Virus record (IMG/VR): IMGVR_UViG_3300020042_005156
Coordinates: 1 to 27,544 of that record
DNA length: 27,544 nt
Source of the DNA: a virus
Lineage: Duplodnaviria; Caudoviricetes
Strand: one strand, 5' to 3'
Below, piece by piece: positions 1 through 13,964 of this stretch. The position numbers were made by a program, and so were the translations under genes. Position 1 is the first letter of the stretch, and each line of letters opens with the position of its first letter. The notes under the pieces are model-generated. The model had not been told where the DNA came from, searched no databases, and worked only from the letters and a program-made list of their open reading frames with translations.

Positions 1-1419
1 GAAGGCCGCAACGAGCTCAACAAATTGTTGGTTGGTGTAGAAAACGGCAGCGTCACATCAGAGCAGGTCGGTGCCAAGATTAAAGCCATGTCAGACGGCT
101 TCTTTCCTAAAGCGCTGGCAAGCAGTGACCCGGAAGCCTCAATTAAGTTTCGCGCCACTATGGCCACGCACGGCAACACCGTGCTCAACGCCGCCTACAA
201 GGCCGAGCTAGAAAGAGCCAAGAATCAGCGCATTGCCAAGTTTGACGCTGACTTTGACAACAGTATCAGATTGCTGGAGGCAACGGTATCGCAAGGCAGT
301 TTTACAGACTCAACCGGCCAAGTGCGATCTATTGATGAGCTCGCAGATGTGTTCCGCAAGAATGTGCTGACTCAATCCCTGCTGCTTGGCGACAAGGCTT
401 TGCAGACCGGCTACAGCACTAAGTTTGAGGTGGCACTGCGCACGGCAAAGGTCAACGCTGTAACCAAGGCGCTGATGTCTGATGCCAACATGGCTGACCC
501 AGAGAAGACGCTGGCCAAGCTAAAGGCTGGCGACCTAGGCAACATGAGCCCGGTGCTGCAATCCATAATCACCAATGACTTTGAGTCGGTGGCCAAGGTG
601 ACTGCCAACTTTATGGTGGCCGTCAACAACCGCAAGTCGATCAAGGATGCCAAGATAGCAGATGAGAAGCGGGTTACCGAGGGCCAGGCAATCAACCTGC
701 TTGAGCAGATCTTCCCGCTGCCGGAGAACAGCCCCAAGCGCAAAGCGCTGATTAGCGAGCTGATTGCTTTGCCACCGGGCTCGGTGCCTATTGGCATCCT
801 CAAAGATGTGCTAGAGCCAAAGCCAGCCAAAGAAGCTGAGTCCAACCAGGGCATCCTTTTCAATTTGATTGATGGCATCTACAACAACACCATTACCGAC
901 TCATCTCAGATCAAGGCATTGGTTGGCAAAGGCATCACCGGCAAAGATGCTGTATCGGCTCTTAAGCTGCTACAAAGCGACAACAAGAGCGACAGCTCTC
1001 AGCTTGAGCGCGGCATCTCCCAGCTTGCTGGCATCCCAGTAATCTCTGGCAGCGTGGTGGTGCTCGACCCCAAGGGCGATGAGTTTAAGCGCCGCAAAGA
1101 ACTGCAAGCCGAGGCATTTCAGATTCAGTCAGAGGCTGCACTTAAAGGCACAACCCTGTCGCCGCGCCAGATCTTGACCCAGCTTGAAGACAACATTGCC
1201 AAACGCCGGAGCAGTGCAGATGCCCAGGCCGCACAGAAGGCGCTGGCTGAGTTTGCCAAAGGCCCAGACGGCAAGTACAAGTCAGGCCGTGATTGGATCA
1301 CAGGGCCGGTGACTGAAGAAAATTTACCCGCCCTGCGTCAAAAGGCTGGCAATGATGCTGCCAAGATGCGACAAATTATTCAGCTTGAAGAGCTGCTCAA
1401 GAGAGCGCGAGGAAACTAA
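1..1419 (+). CDS. Putative internal virion (ejected/core) protein, 5'-truncated
   Basis: Frame is open from base 1 to TAA at 1417-1419. Long helical Ala/Lys/Leu-rich protein, first of three large genes before the tail fibre, the usual position of podovirus ejection proteins. Confidence 0.6.
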   Translation, partial: EGRNELNKLLVGVENGSVTSEQVGAKIKAMSDGFFPKALASSDPEASIKFRATMATHGNTVLNAAYKAELERAKNQRIAKFDADFDNSIRLLEATVSQGSFTDSTGQVRSIDELADVFRKNVLTQSLLLGDKALQTGYSTKFEVALRTAKVNAVTKALMSDANMADPEKTLAKLKAGDLGNMSPVLQSIITNDFESVAKVTANFMVAVNNRKSIKDAKIADEKRVTEGQAINLLEQIFPLPENSPKRKALISELIALPPGSVPIGILKDVLEPKPAKEAESNQGILFNLIDGIYNNTITDSSQIKALVGKGITGKDAVSALKLLQSDNKSDSSQLERGISQLAGIPVISGSVVVLDPKGDEFKRRKELQAEAFQIQSEAALKGTTLSPRQILTQLEDNIAKRRSSADAQAAQKALAEFAKGPDGKYKSGRDWITGPVTEENLPALRQKAGNDAAKMRQIIQLEELLKRARGN

Positions 1420-1421
1420 GC

Positions 1422-4277
1422 ATGGCCTACAGCCCTATTGAAGACAAGTACCTGTCGGCACTGACTGCCATGCAATTCCCGGATGAGCCGGTTGAGGTGG
1501 CCATGCCTGAGCAAACAGCCCCAGGCAGGCAACCTGGTGATGTGCTGCTGGCCGCTGGGCCCAGCACAACCATGACAGACGCAGGGCCGGGCGTGCGTAC
1601 TGGGCGCGGCGGCGTTCAATTACGGTCACCAAGCATGCGTGATATTACCGAGCCAGCCATGGGCATGGCCGATATGTTGGCGGCTACCGGCAAGGGTCTG
1701 GTTCAAGGCTTTGTTGGGTTGCCTGGCGAGGTTGAGGCAATTAGCTATGGCGTCAAGGAAATATTTAATCGCGGGGCTGGTGAGGGCATGCTAGATGCAT
1801 TCTTGCGCGGCTTTCAAGGCGGCACAATATTGCCGAAGACTGAAGAAGTCAAGAAGTGGCTGGATCAAAATGTCGGTACGGTTGGCGGTGGCAAGGTGCC
1901 GTATGAGTCTATTGGTGAAGTAGTTGCACCTGGTGGCCAAATCAAAGCTGTAAAAGCTGGTGCTGCTGGCGTAAAGGCTCTGGTCAGAGAAACAGGCTCT
2001 CAGCTTGACCGCGCCATGATGGAGGGCACCGGGCCTCTGTCGGGTCTGGTGCCGCCGGGTGCTCGGCCAATGTTCGCTGTTGATCCTGGGTCTGTGCAAT
2101 TAAACCGCCAAGAAAAAGCCGTGATCAGTGCTGGCGCTGGCCGCAAAAAACAAGTGCGAGAAGAAGCCACCAAACTTGCTACAGACATGAAGGCCAACTA
2201 TGCAGAAGCAGATGGTTGGGCACCAATTGAAATTAACAAGGTTGAGCAAAAACTTGACAAAGCAGGCAAGTTTGTAAAAGTTGAAATTGAGCCCAAGGCT
2301 ATATCGTATGACTTCCATACGCCGCCAGCAGATGTGCCGGTTGAGGCGTGGCAGGCCACAATGTCCTCGCGTGTTTTAGATGAGGTGCAGACCGTTGTTG
2401 ACAGAGCTGCTGCCGGTGATCAAGCCGCTCTAGATATCTTGGCAGAAGCCAGTTGGTATCGAACCATGCGCGACAGACTGCGCACAGAGTTTGGTGGCAT
2501 TGGTGATGTGTTTGCTGATGTCTTAGGTACAACCTCTGCGCAAACAGATGTGCGTCAAAACTTCAAGAACGCAGTGGCAGTTCTTACAAAGTTCAGCCGT
2601 GGCGATTACGACAAAACGCTGGCGGCTTACGAGTCAAGGGTCGCCAAGGGTCAGCCTGTTGACGCAAAAACACTGGGCGAATTAGATGCCGCTGGAACCT
2701 TTGATTTGATCAAAAGTGATGCTGGCAAGTTGTTCAACACAAACAGCCCGGCGACCATGGGCGCATTGCTGGACATGTTCCGCGCCATAAAGGCAGGTGA
2801 CTCTCCAAAGACGCCAAACTTCACAGGCAATTTGATTGGCCTGACCAATGAAGCAACCATCGATGTGTGGGCTGCTAGGATGCTGCGCCGATTGGCTGAC
2901 TTGCCAAGAATACCGCCACCGGCAGAAAAAGGTGTCGGCGGCGCACACACCAAAGGCTCAACATTATTTGAGCCACAAGTCAGTGGTGAGTTTGGGTTTG
3001 GCCAGGATGTGTTTAGAGAAGCGGCTGACGAAATCAACAAAAGCGGCATCATTAAAAACATTGCGCCAGACATTGGCGATCTTGGCCCAGATGACCTTCA
3101 AGCTGTTGCATGGTTCATTGAAAAAGAAAAGTGGACAAACAGCGGCTGGACAACAAAAGCCGGTGAAGGCGGCTCGCTTGATTACGAGATGTCTTTGGCG
3201 GGTGCGGCTGATCCAGGTCGCATCAGTGAGTTGCGCAAGGGGATCAACAAGTCATTCCAAGCTCCGGCACGGCGCAAGGGCGAATTGGAAATGGGCGAGC
3301 AGGCTTACGCATATCGGATGCAACCTTTGCGGAAGCAAGACCTTGAAAACAAAGAGGCCATGCGGCAAGAGCTTTTGCAGTCCAAAGCCAGCGTTGATCG
3401 GTACACGCTTGGCGTTTCTGGCGAGCGCCCAGACAAGCCAATGAGCAACTATGGCCAGGCCGAGCTGGCTGCTGAGTTTGATGATGTTGTTCGCAATGAC
3501 CCGAGTGTCGTTACCTACAATTTGTCAAACACTTATGGATCATTTATGGGCGGCACTGAACGAGCCCTTAACGCTGAGTTCATTACCAAACAGAACTTTG
3601 TGCCCACTGCGCTTGAGCGCCGCATGGTTGAGCAAGGCAAAGCCTACGACCAAGACGCTGTGTTTATTTCAAAAGTGGTCAAAGACAGCGCAGCACCAAA
3701 CGCTCGGCCAGGTGTGGAAATTTACTTTAAGGAAAAAATCACCCCTGAGAAAATGGCGGCTGTTACGGCAAAGCTGCGCGAATACGGTGTTGATGGGTTT
3801 ACCTATGTGACCGACATGCGCTTCAGTGACCGCATCAATGTGCAAGCCCGAGCTGGTGGCGCTGAGACTGCTGGCCTTAATGGCTTGCGTTTTCAGTACA
3901 TCCCAGAATTTGATGACGGATTTAATCAGGCCAATCGATCAGCAATAATGGCTGAAAAACAACGCTTGTTTGATAAAGTGGTTGAGGATATGATTGGCGA
4001 GGGAAATGTGTCTGATGCCCGTACCGTTTTCTATGACACAAAAGTCTATTTTAGGAGTGATTACGATGCTTACCTTGGAAGAACTACTCAAGGAGCGAGT
4101 GCAACGCCTGGGTCAAGATCATCCAGCGGTGCAGATGTTGCGCAACCAGATAACAGCGGAGAAGTCGGGAAAGACTTTTCAAGAGCTGTATCTGACCGGC
4201 TCCGTAAAAAAGCAGCCAGCAGCAAACCCGCAGCAGTAAACAGGGGCGGCACCGCTCCGCAATCTGGAGCTAAGTGA
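1422..4277 (+). CDS. Large multidomain internal virion protein (951 aa) with HhH-GPD glycosylase-like and SAM-lyase-like cargo domains
   Basis: ATG at 1422 after GAGGA. Gly/Ala-rich amphipathic N-terminus, then motifs TTSAQTDV, KTPNF...TIDVWAAR, LQAVAW (EndoIII-like) and YTLGVSGER...GSFMGGTE...YDQDAVF (SAMase-like). Lies between two other large virion genes. Confidence 0.7.
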   Translation: MAYSPIEDKYLSALTAMQFPDEPVEVAMPEQTAPGRQPGDVLLAAGPSTTMTDAGPGVRTGRGGVQLRSPSMRDITEPAMGMADMLAATGKGLVQGFVGLPGEVEAISYGVKEIFNRGAGEGMLDAFLRGFQGGTILPKTEEVKKWLDQNVGTVGGGKVPYESIGEVVAPGGQIKAVKAGAAGVKALVRETGSQLDRAMMEGTGPLSGLVPPGARPMFAVDPGSVQLNRQEKAVISAGAGRKKQVREEATKLATDMKANYAEADGWAPIEINKVEQKLDKAGKFVKVEIEPKAISYDFHTPPADVPVEAWQATMSSRVLDEVQTVVDRAAAGDQAALDILAEASWYRTMRDRLRTEFGGIGDVFADVLGTTSAQTDVRQNFKNAVAVLTKFSRGDYDKTLAAYESRVAKGQPVDAKTLGELDAAGTFDLIKSDAGKLFNTNSPATMGALLDMFRAIKAGDSPKTPNFTGNLIGLTNEATIDVWAARMLRRLADLPRIPPPAEKGVGGAHTKGSTLFEPQVSGEFGFGQDVFREAADEINKSGIIKNIAPDIGDLGPDDLQAVAWFIEKEKWTNSGWTTKAGEGGSLDYEMSLAGAADPGRISELRKGINKSFQAPARRKGELEMGEQAYAYRMQPLRKQDLENKEAMRQELLQSKASVDRYTLGVSGERPDKPMSNYGQAELAAEFDDVVRNDPSVVTYNLSNTYGSFMGGTERALNAEFITKQNFVPTALERRMVEQGKAYDQDAVFISKVVKDSAAPNARPGVEIYFKEKITPEKMAAVTAKLREYGVDGFTYVTDMRFSDRINVQARAGGAETAGLNGLRFQYIPEFDDGFNQANRSAIMAEKQRLFDKVVEDMIGEGNVSDARTVFYDTKVYFRSDYDAYLGRTTQGASATPGSRSSSGADVAQPDNSGEVGKDFSRAVSDRLRKKAASSKPAAVNRGGTAPQSGAK
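4066..4239 (+). CDS. Small overprinted protein (57 aa) nested out of frame in the 3' end of the 951-aa gene
   Basis: AGGAG at 4053-4057, ATG at 4066. Product MLTLEELLKERVQRLGQDHPAVQMLRNQITAEKSGKTFQELYLTG... looks helical and globular, while the host frame becomes low-complexity Ser/Gly/Ala over the same span. Confidence 0.55.
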   Translation: MLTLEELLKERVQRLGQDHPAVQMLRNQITAEKSGKTFQELYLTGSVKKQPAANPQQ

Positions 4278-7156
4278 TGGCCATTGAACAGAAGTCCCTT
4301 GATCAACGGCTTGGCCAGATCCTGCCCGGTGCCGCGCCCAGCACGCCTGCCGAAGACATCCCGCTGGAGCCCATGCCTGCGGCTGGCCCAGCCGACACAA
4401 CTGAGATGCCCGAGGTCGCTGAGATCGGCACCCCTTCCATGGAGGAGGGTGTCCAGGTCGCAGGCCCAATAGATGCCGCCCTGCGCAAGCTGATCACCCG
4501 GCAGGCCACCAAGGCCGAGCGCAACCTGGTGCCAGACGCTGCCCGAGCTCTGCCGGGCGAGCTGCCCGATGCTGCCAAGGCTGGCCGCTTTAAGCTGATC
4601 CCCGAGGCTGACCAAATCCTGACTGATGAGGTTGGCCGTGCGGTCAGTCGCAGGCAGACCTTTGGCATCACCGAGGGTAAACCCGGTGGTACACCTGACG
4701 AGCCGTTTAACCTGTCCCGCTACCAGACCGAGGATGCCGCTGCCATTGTGGGCGGCGTGGCTGATGCGCTGAACATTCGCACCAAGGCGGTCACCTTTCA
4801 AGAGATCAAGGACAAGGCCGCTGAGTCGGGCATTGGCGAGGCTTTCCTGTCCCGCCTGATTGGCACCGATGGCAAGATGATGGCCAACGCTGTCGAGACC
4901 TACAAAGCGCTGGAGGTGCTGGAGTCCAGCGCCAACGAGCTGGATCGCCTGTTTAAGATGGTCAACAGTGGAACAGCCACCGATGTGGACAAGCTGGTGC
5001 TGCGCCAGCAGATCGCCTTCCACGGCCTGATCCAGCGCGGTGTCAAGGGCATCCAGACCGAGACCGCCAGGTCGCTGGCTGTGTTTCGCATTCCCCGTGA
5101 TGGCAACGCTGCCATTGTGCGGCAAGTGATCGACGAATACGGTGGTGACAAAAGCCTGTCTGATCTGGCCAAGTCCTACCTGACATTGGAGTCTCGAGCT
5201 GAACAGAACAAGCTGGTTGAGAAGTCAATGATGTCGAGCGTGAAAGATGTGTGGTTTAGCACCTTCATCAACGGGCTGCTGTCGTCACCAAAAACACATG
5301 TTCTTAATATTGCATCAAACAGCAGTTTTGGTTTGTATCAAATACCAGAGCGTGCGGTTGCCTCTCTGTATTCAAAATATTTACCAGCAAGTGTGCGCGA
5401 GGGACGCATGCCCAATGTCATCACAAAATGGGGTGATCTTTTACCTGGTAGCGCTGACGAAAAAATTGCACTTGACGAAGCGTTGACCATGATCCAGTCG
5501 CTTCGCAATGGATTCTTTGAAGGATTGCAGTTGGCAAGCACTGCGTTTAGAAAGAATCAGCCCAGCGATCTGATGAGCAAGATTGAGGCACAGCGCGGCA
5601 ATACTGTCCCAGCGATCAGTTCCGCAGGTTTTGGCATTGAGCAGGACAAGTGGTTTGGCAAGGCCATCGACTACTATGGCGCGGCTGTCACCCTGCCGGG
5701 TCGGATGCTGTTAACTGAGGATGAGTTTTTTAAGGGCGTGCTCTATCGCATGGAGTTCAACACCTTGGTTACCCGGCGCAGCAAAAAGGTCTACCGCGAT
5801 TCGCTGGACGCTGGCATGCCAGAAGCAGATGCCTTGGCCAAGGCCGAGGCAGAGACCATCAGCCTATTTGAAAACCCGCCAAGAGATCTTGACGAAGCTG
5901 CATCCCTGTTTGCACAGAAGGGCACTTTTACTGCCGAGCTGCCGCCAGTGCTTAGATCATTGCAGAAAGCGTTTAGTAATCCTGTGCTGAAAATAATGCA
6001 GCCGTTTTTCAAAACACCCGCCAACATTGGTTTACAGGTTGTTGAGCGCAGTCCCTTTGCGCCGCTGTCAAGCCAGTGGCGTGAAGAGATCGCCAAGGGT
6101 GGCGTGTACCGCGACATGGCCTTAGCCAAGGTAACGCTGGGCAGCACCATCATGGCCACCTTTGCGCTGCTGGCTGCCGAGGGAAAAATTACCGGCAGCG
6201 GCCCGGCCAAAAAAGAAGATCGAGACGCGCTTGAGCGTACCGGATGGAAACCGTATTCATTCAAGCCAGGCGACACCTACTACAGCTATAGCGGTATGGA
6301 GCCCATCTCTGCAATGATTGGTATTGCCTCAGATTACAACGAGTACGCCCAGCGCGAAACGGACGACAGCAAGATTGAAGAAGTGTTTCTTGGTTCTGTC
6401 TTTGGCATGTATGAATACCTAGCAGAGCAGCCTTACTTGCAAGGCATTGCTGACATGGCTGCATTGCTTGGGTTTGGAAAAAAAGGTCAAGAGCTTGATA
6501 TTAAGAAAACAATTGACAATGCATTTAAGCAATTGGGCGGCTTTGTAATTGGCGGTTCACCGGCTGGTGTTTACAGCTCTTTGTTTGCTGCTACTGAGCG
6601 GATGGTCGATCCAACAAATCGTGACCCTCGCGCCAACCCAGAGTTGCCCATGGGTGTTCGCGGCTTTATGGAATCTTTTAATAGGTACAAATCACGCCTG
6701 CCTTATTTCAATGCAGACTTGCCAGAAGAATTAAATCTCTGGGGTGATCCAATGAAGTCGGGCACGGGTGCAGTTTATGAAATGTTTTTGCCAACCAAGG
6801 TTTCACCAGAGCAGTTTTCTGAAGTCGATGATTTACTTGTACGCATAATTTCACCAATAGGAAAACCAGATCGCAAGATCGATGGTGTTGAATTAAACGC
6901 AGTGCAATACAACCGATTGATCACGATCTACGGAAAAGAGCTGCCATCCAAAGATCAAATTCTTGCCACCATGCAGACACCTGGCTTTGACAGACTGTTG
7001 CGTAAAGACCAACAAAAGTATGTGCAAGGCGTGCATAGCAAATACATGGACATGGCAAGAAAACAACTACTTACAGAATATCCAGAGATACAAGTAAAAA
7101 TTGACGAGCGTGAAGAGTTAAAAAATGATCGCGTGAACTTTTACAAACCCGATTAA
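4277..7156 (+). CDS. Large internal virion protein (T7 gp16-like ejection protein), about 959 aa
   Basis: ATG overlaps the upstream stop (TGATG) after GGAG. Contains the GWKPYSF...YYSYSGMEP segment typical of the last podovirus internal virion protein; immediately precedes the tail fibre. Confidence 0.7.
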   Translation: MAIEQKSLDQRLGQILPGAAPSTPAEDIPLEPMPAAGPADTTEMPEVAEIGTPSMEEGVQVAGPIDAALRKLITRQATKAERNLVPDAARALPGELPDAAKAGRFKLIPEADQILTDEVGRAVSRRQTFGITEGKPGGTPDEPFNLSRYQTEDAAAIVGGVADALNIRTKAVTFQEIKDKAAESGIGEAFLSRLIGTDGKMMANAVETYKALEVLESSANELDRLFKMVNSGTATDVDKLVLRQQIAFHGLIQRGVKGIQTETARSLAVFRIPRDGNAAIVRQVIDEYGGDKSLSDLAKSYLTLESRAEQNKLVEKSMMSSVKDVWFSTFINGLLSSPKTHVLNIASNSSFGLYQIPERAVASLYSKYLPASVREGRMPNVITKWGDLLPGSADEKIALDEALTMIQSLRNGFFEGLQLASTAFRKNQPSDLMSKIEAQRGNTVPAISSAGFGIEQDKWFGKAIDYYGAAVTLPGRMLLTEDEFFKGVLYRMEFNTLVTRRSKKVYRDSLDAGMPEADALAKAEAETISLFENPPRDLDEAASLFAQKGTFTAELPPVLRSLQKAFSNPVLKIMQPFFKTPANIGLQVVERSPFAPLSSQWREEIAKGGVYRDMALAKVTLGSTIMATFALLAAEGKITGSGPAKKEDRDALERTGWKPYSFKPGDTYYSYSGMEPISAMIGIASDYNEYAQRETDDSKIEEVFLGSVFGMYEYLAEQPYLQGIADMAALLGFGKKGQELDIKKTIDNAFKQLGGFVIGGSPAGVYSSLFAATERMVDPTNRDPRANPELPMGVRGFMESFNRYKSRLPYFNADLPEELNLWGDPMKSGTGAVYEMFLPTKVSPEQFSEVDDLLVRIISPIGKPDRKIDGVELNAVQYNRLITIYGKELPSKDQILATMQTPGFDRLLRKDQQKYVQGVHSKYMDMARKQLLTEYPEIQVKIDEREELKNDRVNFYKPD

Positions 7157-7189: not shown

Positions 7190-9469
7190 ATGGCCATCCC
7201 AATCAGCAATGTCACCCGCCGAACAGTCTACGCACCCAGCGGCGCTGGTGGCGCTGGCCCCTATGCGTTTACTTTTGAGATCCTGGCCAACACTGACATT
7301 GCCGTTTTCAAAGATGACACGCTGCTGACGCTGACCACCCACTACACGGTGAGCATTGCAGCCAACGGCACGGGCTCGGTGACCATCACGGCAGCAGGCT
7401 TGGCGCTGGCTCCTGTGTCTCCAACCCAGTACGCAATTGTCGGCAACCGCGCTATCAGCCGGTCTACTGACTTCACAACCGGTGGTGACTTCTTTGCCAA
7501 CACGCTCAATGATGAGCTCGATCAGCAGACCATCTTTGCCCAGCAGAATGCCGAGGGTGTTACCCGTGCATTGCAGGCACCACAGACCGACCCGACCACG
7601 GTGGACATGACCCTGCCCCGAGCATCTGTCCGGGCCAACAAGACGCTGGCCTTTGATGCCAACGGCGACCCCACCACGGGCGAGGTGATCGGTGACAACC
7701 GTGGCAACTGGGCGGCTGGTGTTGCGTACAACAAGCGCGACATTGTCAAGGACACAAGCAACGGCAATGTCTACTATGCGAACACCAGCCACACATCCTC
7801 TGGCTCACAGCCAATCAGCACCAACGCTGACAGCGCCAAGTGGGATCTGATTGTTGACAACGCATCAGCAACAACCTCGGCCACCAACGCTGCTGCATCA
7901 GCCTCTGCTGCGTCTACCAGCGCAAGCAATGCATCGACATCAGCCACCAACGCAGCCAGCTCTGCCAGCACGGCCAGCACCCAAGCCAGCAATGCGAGCA
8001 CCTCGGCTACCAATGCGGCATCCAGCGCAAGCGCAGCATCCAGCTCGGCCAGCACCGCAAGCACCGCTGCGACCAACGCTGGCACCTCGGCCACCGCAGC
8101 CTCAACCAGCGCAACGAGTGCCAGCAGCAGCGCCACATCAGCGAGCGGGTCTGCCAGCACTGCAACGACACAGGCCAGCAACGCCAGCACATCAGCGACC
8201 GCTGCTGCGGCATCAGCGAGCACGGCCACTACGCAGGCCACCAACGCAGCAACCTCTGCCTCGGGTGCCAGCACCTCGGCATCAAATGCAAGCACCTCGG
8301 CCAGCAACGCATCAGCCAGTGAAACGGCTGCTGCCGCATCTGCTGCATCTGCTGCTGCCAGCTTTGATGCGTTTGATGACATCTACCTGGGTGCCAAGGC
8401 AAGCGATCCCACTGTTGACAATGACGGCAACGCGCTGACCACTGGCGACCAGTACTTCAACACCACAGCCAATGAGCTGCGCGTGTACAACGGCAGCACT
8501 TGGCAGGCAGCATCCACTGTTGGCGGCACTGTGACCAACCTCACGGTCACCAACGGCGCAACCATCCAAGGCCTCACAGTAGGCCGTGGCGCGGGTGCTG
8601 TGTCTACGAATACGGCGGTGGGTGCGAGTGCTTTGGTGGCGAATACAACGGGTGACGAGAACGTGGGGGTTGGTCATACCGCTCTTACAGTTACTACTAC
8701 CGGCTCTGGGAACACTGCCGTTGGCTCGCGCACAATGCGATTAAATACGACTGGCAACTTTAACTCCTCCCTTGGTTACGCCACACTTATTGCAAATACA
8801 ACAGGTGCTAACAATGTTGCAGTAGGAGCATCGGCTCTTCAGTTCAACACCACAGCCTCAAACAACACCGCTGTGGGTTATCAGGCGGGGTATAGCAATA
8901 CAACCGGAACATACAACCTGTTCATGGGTTATATAACGGGGCAATCAAACACCACTGGGTCGCAGAACACTTTTGTTGGTGGCCTTGGTGCTGGCAATGC
9001 CGTTACAACTGGCGGCAAACACACAATCATCGGCAACTACTCAGGCAACAACGGTGGCCTCGACATCCGCACTGCCAACAACTACATCGTCTTGAGCGAT
9101 GGGGATGGGAATCCACGGGGGTATTTTGACAACAACGGAAGACTAACTCTTGCAGGTACCGTTGCAATTTCGGTTGCTCCTGGAACGTACACACTTGATA
9201 CTTCTGCAACTGGAACTTCTATTGCCAATGGCGGCACAGTTAATTACTCAAACTCATCTGGTTTTTTAATTGTAAATAATTGGAGTCAAGGCTCTGTTGG
9301 TATATGGCTGATGGGTGGGGGTCAAACTGCGCTTGTTTCCAATGTTGGAGGCGTTGGGCTAGGAGCCATTGCATACAACGCTGGTATTAATGGCTACACA
9401 TGGACAAACACTTACGGCGCAACTGGTATATTTGATTTTGTCTTTATCCGCACTCGTACTGGCGCGTAA
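7190..9469 (+). CDS. Tail fibre / receptor-binding protein (759 aa)
   Basis: T7 gp17-like N-terminal anchor (GPYAFTFEIL...TLTTHYTV...LNDELDQ), RGNWAAGVAYNKRDIV module, long Ser/Ala/Thr repeat stalk, YLGAKASDPTVDNDG...YFNT module, NTAVG/NTTG beta-helix repeats, divergent C-terminal tip. Confidence 0.9.
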   Translation: MAIPISNVTRRTVYAPSGAGGAGPYAFTFEILANTDIAVFKDDTLLTLTTHYTVSIAANGTGSVTITAAGLALAPVSPTQYAIVGNRAISRSTDFTTGGDFFANTLNDELDQQTIFAQQNAEGVTRALQAPQTDPTTVDMTLPRASVRANKTLAFDANGDPTTGEVIGDNRGNWAAGVAYNKRDIVKDTSNGNVYYANTSHTSSGSQPISTNADSAKWDLIVDNASATTSATNAAASASAASTSASNASTSATNAASSASTASTQASNASTSATNAASSASAASSSASTASTAATNAGTSATAASTSATSASSSATSASGSASTATTQASNASTSATAAAASASTATTQATNAATSASGASTSASNASTSASNASASETAAAASAASAAASFDAFDDIYLGAKASDPTVDNDGNALTTGDQYFNTTANELRVYNGSTWQAASTVGGTVTNLTVTNGATIQGLTVGRGAGAVSTNTAVGASALVANTTGDENVGVGHTALTVTTTGSGNTAVGSRTMRLNTTGNFNSSLGYATLIANTTGANNVAVGASALQFNTTASNNTAVGYQAGYSNTTGTYNLFMGYITGQSNTTGSQNTFVGGLGAGNAVTTGGKHTIIGNYSGNNGGLDIRTANNYIVLSDGDGNPRGYFDNNGRLTLAGTVAISVAPGTYTLDTSATGTSIANGGTVNYSNSSGFLIVNNWSQGSVGIWLMGGGQTALVSNVGGVGLGAIAYNAGINGYTWTNTYGATGIFDFVFIRTRTGA
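7860..8362 (+). repeat. Degenerate Ser/Ala/Thr heptad-like coding repeats (e.g. ASTSATNAASS) forming the tail fibre stalk
   Basis: Recurring gccagcac/gccaccaacgc units, in frame with the fibre gene; resembles lambda Stf-type stalks. Confidence 0.8.
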
Positions 9470-11837: not shown

Positions 11838-12848
11838 TTACTGAGCGGCCCCCAGCGCTCCGAGGCGCTTGCTGTACGCAGCTGTGTGCCTGATTCGCTT
11901 GAGCATCTCTACCTTGGCCAGCGTGGGCTCATTGGCTTCGCGCAGCTCCTTGAGCTTGGTCATGCGATCCCGGGGCAGCACCTTGCCAGCTCGCGCTGTC
12001 TTGTCTGCGACATCCTCGTAAGCGTCTTGCCATTCCTCAATGGTCGCATGCGTTGACAGCGGCTTGTCCTTGCCCGGCAGCAACACGGCAAACCCTTCGG
12101 TGGCCACTGTGGCTGGTGCCTCAACAACCTCGGGGATGTCAACCACCTCCATGGCCTCGGCCATAGCCTGAGCGACCAGCTCGTTGACAGCGTCCACCTC
12201 CTGATCCTTGGCAAACACTTCCTCGATTACCGCCGGGTTGCTGGTCTGCTCGATCATGGGGGTTGGCGCCACCATGTCCAGTGGGTTGGCTGGCCTGGCC
12301 ATCTGGCGGGGCTTGGCTTCCTCCGGGTAGTCCTGTGCCTCCTCGGCGGTGATCATGCCCTTGAGCACATCAGGGAAGGCATCACGCAGCGCAAAGCCGC
12401 GAGCTCGCATCTGCATCATGCGCTTGGGGTAGGATGACCATGGCCCCTGCTTGCCCCACAGTCCAGCACGCTTGGCATCCTCAACCGAGAACCGAGCGGT
12501 CACCGGCTTGCGGCCCTTGCGCTTGGCCACGCAGACTGCCACCGGGTTGGGCGTACCTTCGCCCTCAAAGAACTCCTCGACATCCTCACAGACGGGGCTG
12601 GCCTGCACCAGGGCCATGGCTGCGTCACCGTAGACCGAGGGCTTGCCGTTGATGACAGCGATGTTCTGGAGCGCTTGCATGGGTGCCAGCCCCATCTCCA
12701 TGCCCCATTGAACACAGACCAGGATGTCCTGGGGCTTGCCCTGGTAGGCCTTGGGCACCATGCTGGAGTTGGCCAGCATGTCTGAGAAGGTCATGGCCTC
12801 GGTGAGGGTGGTCGGAGCGAAGCCCCGATTAGTGGTGGTCAGTTGCAT
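11838..12848 (-). CDS. recT: RecT/Redbeta-like single-strand annealing protein
   Basis: VPKAYQGKPQD, GMEMGLAPMQALQNIAVINGKP, AKRAGLW, YPKRMMQMRARGFALRDAFPDVLKG; adjacent to a YqaJ-like exonuclease. Confidence 0.85.
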   Translation of the reverse strand: MQLTTTNRGFAPTTLTEAMTFSDMLANSSMVPKAYQGKPQDILVCVQWGMEMGLAPMQALQNIAVINGKPSVYGDAAMALVQASPVCEDVEEFFEGEGTPNPVAVCVAKRKGRKPVTARFSVEDAKRAGLWGKQGPWSSYPKRMMQMRARGFALRDAFPDVLKGMITAEEAQDYPEEAKPRQMARPANPLDMVAPTPMIEQTSNPAVIEEVFAKDQEVDAVNELVAQAMAEAMEVVDIPEVVEAPATVATEGFAVLLPGKDKPLSTHATIEEWQDAYEDVADKTARAGKVLPRDRMTKLKELREANEPTLAKVEMLKRIRHTAAYSKRLGALGAAQ

Positions 12849-13008
12849 TTGTTTCTTTCAGATAGGTTTGCATGGTGATGAAAATCAACTCGGTCATGGA
12901 TTCAACAAACTCCTCGGCCTCGTCCTCGGTGCAGTCGGTGGCATTCAGCATGGCCACAACAGCCTGCTCATAGGCATGCCGGATGGCAGGGTGATCGGGT
13001 AGGTTCAT
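12829..13008 (-). CDS. Hypothetical acidic protein (59 aa)
   Basis: ATGA overlap with the exonuclease stop and an AAGGA RBS; alternative start at 13017. Confidence 0.65.
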   Translation of the reverse strand: MNLPDHPAIRHAYEQAVVAMLNATDCTEDEAEEFVESMTELIFITMQTYLKETNATDHH

Positions 13009-13964
13009 GTTTGCCATTCCTTGATCGACAGCGTGGACTGGCGAATGCTGTAGGCTGCCTTGGCGGGCACCAAACGCTCGGCAGCGGGCTTGTAGTTACG
13101 CATGGGCCAGCTGATCACATATTGCCCGGCACGGCCCCGCTCGGCTTGGCCCAGCTGCTCCTTGATCAGCTTCTCGGCATCCTCAATGCTGGCCTCTGCT
13201 GCCCGGATCGCGGCTTTGCTTTCCAGGATGCCCTTGGCCAGATCGCCTACGCTGGGAGGCAGCTGGAGTTCCTCACGGTCGGCGGCCATGGGGTAGATCC
13301 GGTCAAGCTCTTTGGAGCTGGCCGGCGGATACCAGTCGATGGCCCCGGTGGTCTGGTAGGTTTTGAGCTTGTGCGCAAAGGCGAGCACCTCCTTGATGAT
13401 GGCCTTTTGGGTCTCATGGTGGGTGGCGAACAGGAACACGCGCAGCTCGATGCCCTGATAGAGCACGCAGACAGCGCCCCACTTGTTGCCGGTCACCAGC
13501 ATCTGGCCTTGCAGTTGGATCGGGCCACGGGCCAGGTGCGGGGTGTCCTCCGGCATGGTCTTGGTCAGCTTGGCCTCGAGCACGCCGGGCCCGTCGAGCA
13601 CGATGGAATCCTGGCCGACCACATAGATGCCCCGGTCAGGGTCTGGGAAGATCTCCTGCCCGGTGCCATAGGCAACGCCATCCAGGCTGCAAGACAGTGG
13701 CACCGACTCATGGGTGTACGCCTGGCCGATCTGGGTGTCATAGTCGGTGATGCTCAGGCGCATGGCGGCCTGCTGCAAGATCACCGGCTCAAGGGTATTG
13801 CCCCAGCCCATGGCCTCGTTGCCAATGTCCGGGCGCTCTTTGCCATCGATGGCGTTGATGCTGAATTGCAGCTCGTCATTGGGTGTGCTGTACCGCGAGA
13901 AGCCCATCAGACCCGGAAGTCGGGATGCGCTCATTGCTTTGTCATCAGTTAATTTGCCTGCCAT
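13005..13964 (-). CDS. YqaJ-like viral recombinase exonuclease (RecE/Redalpha analogue)
   Basis: SAS...G..RYSTP, MGWGNTLEP, SCSLDG, LEAK and QLQGQMLVTG (PD-(D/E)xK) motifs; paired with RecT. Confidence 0.88.
   Translation of the reverse strand: MAGKLTDDKAMSASRLPGLMGFSRYSTPNDELQFSINAIDGKERPDIGNEAMGWGNTLEPVILQQAAMRLSITDYDTQIGQAYTHESVPLSCSLDGVAYGTGQEIFPDPDRGIYVVGQDSIVLDGPGVLEAKLTKTMPEDTPHLARGPIQLQGQMLVTGNKWGAVCVLYQGIELRVFLFATHHETQKAIIKEVLAFAHKLKTYQTTGAIDWYPPASSKELDRIYPMAADREELQLPPSVGDLAKGILESKAAIRAAEASIEDAEKLIKEQLGQAERGRAGQYVISWPMRNYKPAAERLVPAKAAYSIRQSTLSIKEWQT

Follow-up and report, generated by a model that had tools for sequence, protein, structure and literature searches.

In a 27,544-nucleotide (nt) stretch of viral DNA (IMG/VR record IMGVR_UViG_3300020042_005156, positions 1 to 27,544; Duplodnaviria, Caudoviricetes), which we refer to as the window, a small gene at 4066..4239 on the plus strand lies in the +1 frame of a much larger gene on the same strand (1422..4277), here called the host gene. 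At the level of sequence, 4066..4239 is confirmed as a genuine nested protein-coding gene by purifying selection on its own frame, by a start that is kept and by a frame that stays open. Its product of 57 amino acids (aa), which we call peptide A, is predicted to form a helical hairpin and is probably a separately started protein that inhibits its cognate cargo, the variable C-terminal part of the host gene product. Cargo-specific pairing and the existence of bacterial copies without cargo strengthen this reading and make it our best inference. A broader and more tentative possibility is that freshwater podophage-like viruses carry a cargo-specific +1 antidote behind each injected enzyme, and that hosts capture these antidotes, provide them with promoters of their own, update them to phage alleles and fuse them as an anti-phage defence.

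An earlier note on this DNA described an AGGAG, a spacer of 8 nt, the ATG at 4066 and a 57-codon +1 open reading frame (ORF), and all of these are present. The AGGAG (4053..4057, plus strand), which resembles a Shine-Dalgarno (SD) sequence, is made by host codons for Arg-Ser. Its description as a strong ribosome-binding site is true in part: the SD estimate of -7.4 kcal/mol beats the 6 annotated-gene starts that were scored, but it ranks just 3rd among the 36 out-of-frame ATGs of the host gene. Since an SD match alone proves little, it is conservation that marks the nested ORF as more than chance. The amphipathic helical peptide that the note described is likewise supported in a milder form, with hydrophobic moments of 0.37 (residues 2-15) and 0.31 (residues 20-33) that fit two helices and an amphipathicity that is moderate.

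The note had made its proposal depend on conservation of the ATG and of the open frame in relatives with the same cargo. Among 26 loci chosen by cargo domain alone, blind to the peptide, the ATG is in register in every one, and the +1 frame is open in all 25 that are uncut there (L043 and other cut loci were left out of the frame counts, and L353 and L354 were left out as unrelated matches). For the ratio of nonsynonymous to synonymous substitution rates (dN/dS), we used 37 distinct sequences, 22 of them cargo-picked, in an alignment that is gap-free over the 49 codons used; 3 of 57 positions were too short for this purpose and were omitted. Where the two genes overlap, the nested frame has a dN/dS of 0.23-0.25 and the host frame one of 1.6 (0.22 and 1.7, respectively, for the 22 cargo-picked sequences); in the 38 host codons upstream of the ATG, the value is 0.16-0.17. 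Synonymous sites are near saturation (dS of about 1) although the sequences are related, and the most variable position of the host codons shifts from the third to the first at the ATG. Thus, the suspicion that selection acts on the nested frame is borne out, with the switch falling at the start codon. Stops interrupt the +2 frame in 37/37 sequences and the +1 frame in none. The host codons that build the start are TAC for Tyr (37/37, against a background of 55%) and GAT for Asp (37/37, background 62%), and the Asp two codons earlier is GAT in 17 sequences and GAC in 19. Where the SD-forming codon encodes Arg, it is AGG or AGA in 34/34 cases (background 24%), and the other 3 of the 37 sequences have Lys AAA.

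These data leave little room for the idea that constraint on RNA structure or on the host tail gave rise to the +1 ORF as a by-product. Taken by itself, the SD match is, as noted, not unusual, but such a constraint would account neither for the difference between the two frames at near-saturated synonymous sites over 49 gap-free codons nor for homologues that occur as separate genes, and we find this explanation scarcely credible. The earlier note had suggested a search for stand-alone homologues, and separately encoded ones do exist. As to the identity of peptide A, comparisons with Pfam, PHROG and PADLOC gave no family, and its ESM neighbours are unnamed clusters from which no identity was gained. 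Sequence matches in the PDB to the TPR repeats of kinesin light chain (best E 5e-4) were rejected, being summed repeat matches in which no single stretch passed.

Programmed frameshifting into the +1 frame would give the cargo an alternative C-terminus and no separate protein. The gene is indeed in the +1 frame in all overlapping cases and starts right at the end of the second cargo domain, and in the window this frame is open from 3994, with further ATGs upstream (4006 and 4015) that are kept in some relatives, not all. Nevertheless, the ATG and the SD-forming codons are fixed; the gene lies past the host stop, in another frame, in L088 and L332; and the copies without cargo begin at the same Met. 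Among 54 longer matches, moreover, no protein of more than 262 aa contains peptide A, which is weak evidence in the same direction. We therefore consider frameshifting very unlikely.

The host frame over the nested gene (4083..4277, plus strand) is unconstrained in its amino acids and yet free of stops. When the peptide is recoded synonymously, the host frame is left open in a mean proportion of only 0.034, with a maximum of 0.097 (27 nested cases of 34 representatives). To judge from these patterns, the host frame serves as a passive linker that is held free of stops without amino-acid constraint. Its length varies. In L158 and L159, it extends by as many as about 900 codons and includes further domains, which places the peptide gene mid-gene in a polyvalent protein, while in L088, L168, L163, L166 and L160, the host stop comes 4, 32, 50, 101 and 143 nt past the ATG, respectively. 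The 2,400-aa host-gene relative in L158 also has, in its N-terminal part (L158:948-1270), a pretoxin HINT domain with a Pfam score above the cut-off. The earlier note had called the small gene overprinted; in the sense of a gene that arose de novo inside the cargo gene, this is not supported, given that the host frame is unconstrained and that adjacent and partly overlapping homologues of the peptide exist. The nested and adjacent states change several times on the cargo tree, the deepest branches of which (midpoint-rooted) are adjacent or partial, and the most distant loci, L328-L331, are fully nested. Whichever state came first, the constrained sequence over the overlap is, on this evidence, the small gene.

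The association between peptide and cargo is close. Of 80 loci picked with the first of two cargo domains (D1), 75 contain a complete host ORF; every one of these also has the second domain (D2) and peptide A, and 69 are fully nested. Among distant relatives, down to 34% D1 identity, the peptide-A profile matches in 15/17 loci and matches weakly in one, and the last has a similar ORF at the same place. In one relative (L132:2459-3013), an in-frame loss has removed about 50 residues of D2 (profile positions 80-129) and left the nested gene whole, which may be an assembly artefact.

The same arrangement is found with other partners. A search with a 103-aa fusion protein led to a second peptide, B, which is nested in the +1 frame behind a different cargo in the same slot. 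This cargo B is DUF7178 (E 2e-27), and a homologue of a flanking gene is present in 23/28 cargo-B loci. In 17 distinct sequences, the ratio of nonsynonymous to synonymous polymorphism (pN/pS) is 0.27 in the nested frame of peptide B and 2.49 in the host frame, and in L203, L230 and L232, peptide B is encoded as an ordinary downstream gene. A third module, C, was first met fused to A and to B, and the prediction that it nests behind a third cargo held in 19/21 matches; in 16 of those 19, the host stop lies 35-50 nt past the nested stop, as it does in the window. Peptides A, B and C have no evident sequence in common. Their cargos resemble each other weakly at best (hhalign: cargo A 9% against cargo B and 1% against cargo C), with motifs like the helix-hairpin-helix (HhH) colinear in all three, again weakly. 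Cargo C (host genes of L334-L352, about 800 aa) has no Pfam match and weak HhH-like motifs, and its C-terminus resembles the second repeat of D2 by eye. On the phage-like contig L193 (359-640), cargo C is accompanied by a nested C-B fusion, and the host frame ends in a remnant of the cargo-B tail, so that a non-cognate module is present in a phage.

Considering the best 80 of 216 viral loci, peptide A stands with cargo A in 46 and peptide B with cargo B in 33, with one further A at a contig start and not a single crossed, fused or double case. The earlier note had expected nesting to keep the gene linked to its cargo through module swaps, and the A, B and C pairings in the same slot do indicate that the small gene is exchanged together with its cargo. 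As in effector-immunity systems, it lies directly 3' of a variable C-terminal cargo and is swapped jointly with it. Such cargo-specific pairing at a fixed position would fit equally well if the peptide were a folding chaperone, or a packaging or ejection adaptor, of the cognate cargo, with bacterial copies as neutral remnants or decoys, and it is the copies without cargo that help to tell these possibilities apart.

When 185,579 genomes were scanned for an exact pattern, six loci came up, namely three cellular ones with peptide A, one cellular one with two copies of peptide B, and two phage-like contigs. The cellular carriers of A are a Betaproteobacteria metagenome-assembled genome (MAG), an Oxalobacteraceae isolate and a Polaromonas MAG. 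D2 was looked for in the four cellular genomes and not found, although the assemblies may be incomplete. These would be orphan partner genes without cargo, as known from effector-immunity systems. The copy in L229 lies 3' of three tRNAs and a terminator-like site and is preceded by TGGACA-17-TATACT, 7 nt before the ATG. In L187, L221, L218 and L227, a near-identical 45-nt stretch lies upstream, with TATACT 9 nt before the ATG; these loci carry three A alleles of types seen in phages, and the records are perhaps not independent. The spacing of 7-9 nt between TATACT and ATG with no SD sequence, observed in L229 (4965-5003), L187, L188, L221, L218 and L227, resembles leaderless translation. Metagenome copies adjoin genes for HNH nucleases, a methyltransferase or transposase-like proteins.

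In these copies, the old host frame has acquired stops in 3/7 cases for A and 5/6 for B while the peptide frame is open. In-frame A-B fusions recur, with at least two types of junction, and unite the partners of two cargos never met together in one phage. Of 50 retrieved fusions of the 103-aa type (some from the same clusters), 26 have an A half that matches a phage allele with an identity of 90% or more. The sole fusion locus with context, L169, is near primase-like and AAA_25 genes. In some cargo-less copies (L229:5001-5789, L221:4001-4783, P0161 and P0162), peptide A is joined to a domain of about 200 aa that is unannotated and has no match in Pfam or PADLOC. A short module that follows peptide A is shared by L228 (5223-5384) and the C-terminus of P0136, and might represent a fourth nested-gene family.

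For a chaperone or adaptor, the host frame that is still open in 4/7 cargo-less A copies, as in recent debris, is a favourable observation. However, the copies begin precisely at the ATG of the peptide and have new DNA upstream, such as the promoter-like sequence in L229, stops have entered the host frame in some of them while the peptide frame was kept, in-frame A-B fusions recur, and a chaperone offers no clear benefit to a cell without the cargo. We thus regard a chaperone or adaptor as unlikely. It is also conceivable that the inhibitor mainly disarms the cargo of superinfecting sister phages, and that cellular copies reside in satellites or integrated elements that protect themselves. The non-cognate module in the phage-like L193 could be read in this way, as could the surroundings of the L169 fusion and the position of the L229 copy after a tRNA cluster. 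In the window, however, the location in a virion-structure operon and the absence of any promoter-like site found between 3500 and 4400 suggest late expression; the pairing is strictly with the phage's own cargo; and L227 and L228 lie among cellular genes. This role in superinfection seems to us quite improbable.

The cargo of the window was modelled as 597 residues (pLDDT 88), in which a helical linker joins a helical D1 to D2, a tandem ferredoxin-like domain. D1 (2352..3200, plus strand) is DUF7178-like, with an E-value of 1.9e-5 against the Pfam family that is below the cut-off, and may have a fold like that of HhH DNA glycosylases; the VIA match to 8-oxoG glycosylase 3n0u has a Z score of 6.6 and an rmsd (root-mean-square deviation) of 4.0 over 179/209 aligned residues. 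Its invariant K463 and D481 are at positions that we take to be catalytic in HhH enzymes. D2 (3390..4082, plus strand) consists of two ferredoxin-like repeats that may resemble S-adenosylmethionine (SAM) lyases, with E713, Q744 and D745 invariant. Its best single-domain match in VIA is the phage SAM lyase 6zm9 (Z 7.3, rmsd 3.6, 116/129 aligned; Z range 6.0-7.3), and 7ock_L has a Z score of 5.5. By sequence, the alignment of D2 with T3 gp0.3 is limited to the Q-D motif, and an ESM Atlas lead pointed to PF23780 at 0.89. Look-alikes of D2 are present in polyvalent-type proteins in BFVD, and a PDB sequence search with D2 gave no useful match. Tandem ferredoxin folds proposed by Foldseek in the PDB superposed poorly, and the porter domains of RND pumps, which are the top VIA rows for D2, were taken as a common arrangement; both were dismissed. 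The cargo may at best be called glycosylase-like plus SAM-lyase-like, and we claim no family membership. Two long +1-frame ORFs within the cargo region (2848-3444 and 3451-3810) were taken as shadows of the host frame.

If peptide A is an inhibitor, the following sequence of events can be proposed. The peptide would be translated from the late mRNA of the structural operon and would bind and silence the HhH-glycosylase-like domain, the SAM-lyase-like domain, or both, in the producing cell. By prediction, the cargo is packaged with the virion and enters the next host by injection; lacking a leader, the peptide would stay out of the capsid, and the cargo would become active after injection. The stop-free linker in the host frame would keep the coupling to the next virion gene or permit appended domains, and cargo and peptide would move as one cassette. 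Hosts, in turn, would acquire peptide genes, likely to disarm incoming cargo.

Several observations weigh against this account. A chaperone, or an adaptor for packaging, would be found together with the cargo in just this pattern. Copies in cellular genomes are rare, with none in 400 further genomes of the family. Peptide A is not acidic and is thus no obvious DNA mimic. The fold scores of the cargo are middling, as Z scores of 6.6 and 7.3 are both within the range that the tool calls common; a hidden Markov model search of D2 with PF23780 gave no match; and the D2 profile scores just 0.4% against the T3 SAMase (T3 gp0.3). Finally, D1 and D2 occur together in 75/75 complete loci and in 19/19 loci of the distant search and are never separate, so that either or both may be the target.

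The setting of the host gene is in keeping with a virion-ejected product. The virus record of 27.5 kb has genes for a terminase, a head-tail connector, a tail fibre, an endolysin and RecT/RecE-like proteins, and the cluster around the host gene looks like the core or ejection cluster of podophages. The host gene encodes 951 aa, predicted to be a polyvalent protein made of leader, cargo and read-through tail, and seems to fit the polyvalent virion-ejected class in being multidomain, in having variable cargo and in being encoded among internal virion proteins. Its N-terminal leader (1422..2290, plus strand), likely the packaging or ejection part, is common to genes with cargo B or C in the slot, with tblastn matches in 7/28 cargo-B loci and also in cargo-C loci. 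The gene upstream (1..1419, plus strand, cut at its 5' end) is likely a further core or ejection protein, homologues of which lie upstream in 10/28 cargo-B loci. Directly downstream, an internal virion protein (4277..7156, plus strand; phrog_6651, E 6.9e-36) flanks the slot, and its homologues stand 3' of the peptide in 21/28 B loci and 17/19 C loci. The junction (4266..4279, plus strand) consists of a GGAG and a TGATG in which the host stop overlaps the next start, so that translational coupling is likely; in short-tailed relatives, this overlap is mostly TGATG or TAATG.

Cultured phage and plasmid records searched with the module gave no match. Contigs from RNA libraries cover the region in all 4 runs examined (23 are listed), as contigs with no strand or depth ranking, and the runs with the region come mostly from lake and river samples. 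Elsewhere in the window, the first 160-220 residues of the tail fibre (7190-9469) are conserved among cargo-A and cargo-B phages, with a weak CBM_5_12 match, and a RecT and RecE-like (YqaJ) recombination pair on the minus strand (11838-13964) is a plausible engine of cassette swaps in the cargo slot.

If the inhibitor reading is true, partner genes that have escaped annotation can lie in the low-complexity linkers and tails of phage polyvalent proteins, and scans of the +1 frame would yield a cognate inhibitor for each cargo domain, so that toxic and uncharacterised domains, DUF7178 among them, could be cloned and tested. The same reading would also explain how a phage can produce an enzyme destined for injection and yet spare the producing cell and its own DNA. 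Furthermore, the cargo-less copies would be a class of defence that current libraries miss, as they have no PADLOC match, in which the phage's own inhibitors are turned against injected counter-defence enzymes.

Several known systems invite comparison. In interbacterial toxin systems, orphan immunity genes occur without cargo in variable chromosomal regions, with several specificities side by side or fused. The literature listed on such orphans was confined to T6SS and enterococcal settings. The cargo-less partner copies and fusions are similar, except that they come from a phage and that an enzyme injected from the virion is their predicted target. The Rz/Rz1 genes of phage lambda are another example of a small gene wholly within another in the +1 frame, and both of their frames encode functional parts of the spanin. 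Our case shares the fully nested +1 gene, predicted to be the partner of the host-gene product, but here the host frame appears to be an unconstrained linker.

Polyvalent proteins have been described as large multidomain proteins for which injection together with the phage DNA is predicted (Iyer et al. 2017, PMC5512222). The host-gene relatives are similar, with the same cargo standing within multidomain proteins of 1,400-2,400 aa that have further domains. What differs is the nested partner gene: none is described in the available passages of that paper, the main text of which uses "overlap" and "glycosylase" 0 times and "nested" 2 times, of a hairpin. MuF polymorphic toxins, as far as the accessible part of the source goes, have cognate immunity proteins (PMC12226406), and they share with our case, as predicted, a virion-associated carrier, a variable C-terminal enzyme and a putative cognate partner. 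Searches of the host protein with Pfam and PHROG found no MuF domain, and the carrier here is in a cluster for internal virion or ejection proteins, with its partner nested in another frame and sometimes mid-gene. In the Rpn genes-within-genes, the gene of a protein also gives rise, by internal translation, to a small inhibitor that blocks it (10.1101/2023.05.02.539157). There, Rpn-S is that protein's own C-terminal domain and belongs to a host defence gene, whereas peptide A is encoded in the +1 frame, is unrelated in sequence and is phage-encoded. Regarding the cargo, the SAM lyase Svi3-3, the fold of which is related to that of D2, is stated in the excerpts to be highly toxic when expressed (PMC7877911). 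D2 may resemble Svi3-3 and T3 gp0.3 (PMC7877911, PMC12255297) in its ferredoxin-like fold and in an invariant Glu and Gln-Asp at comparable places, but it is built as a tandem repeat, to which an HhH-like domain is fused, and the profiles do not match. In the literature covered, in which subscription journals were thinly represented and supplements were not included, we found no report on DUF7178, on +1-nested cargo-specific partners in ejection proteins or on their capture by bacteria. Thus, although the parts have precedents, the combination of +1-nested, cargo-specific partners in ejection proteins with bacterial capture of these partners would appear to be new.

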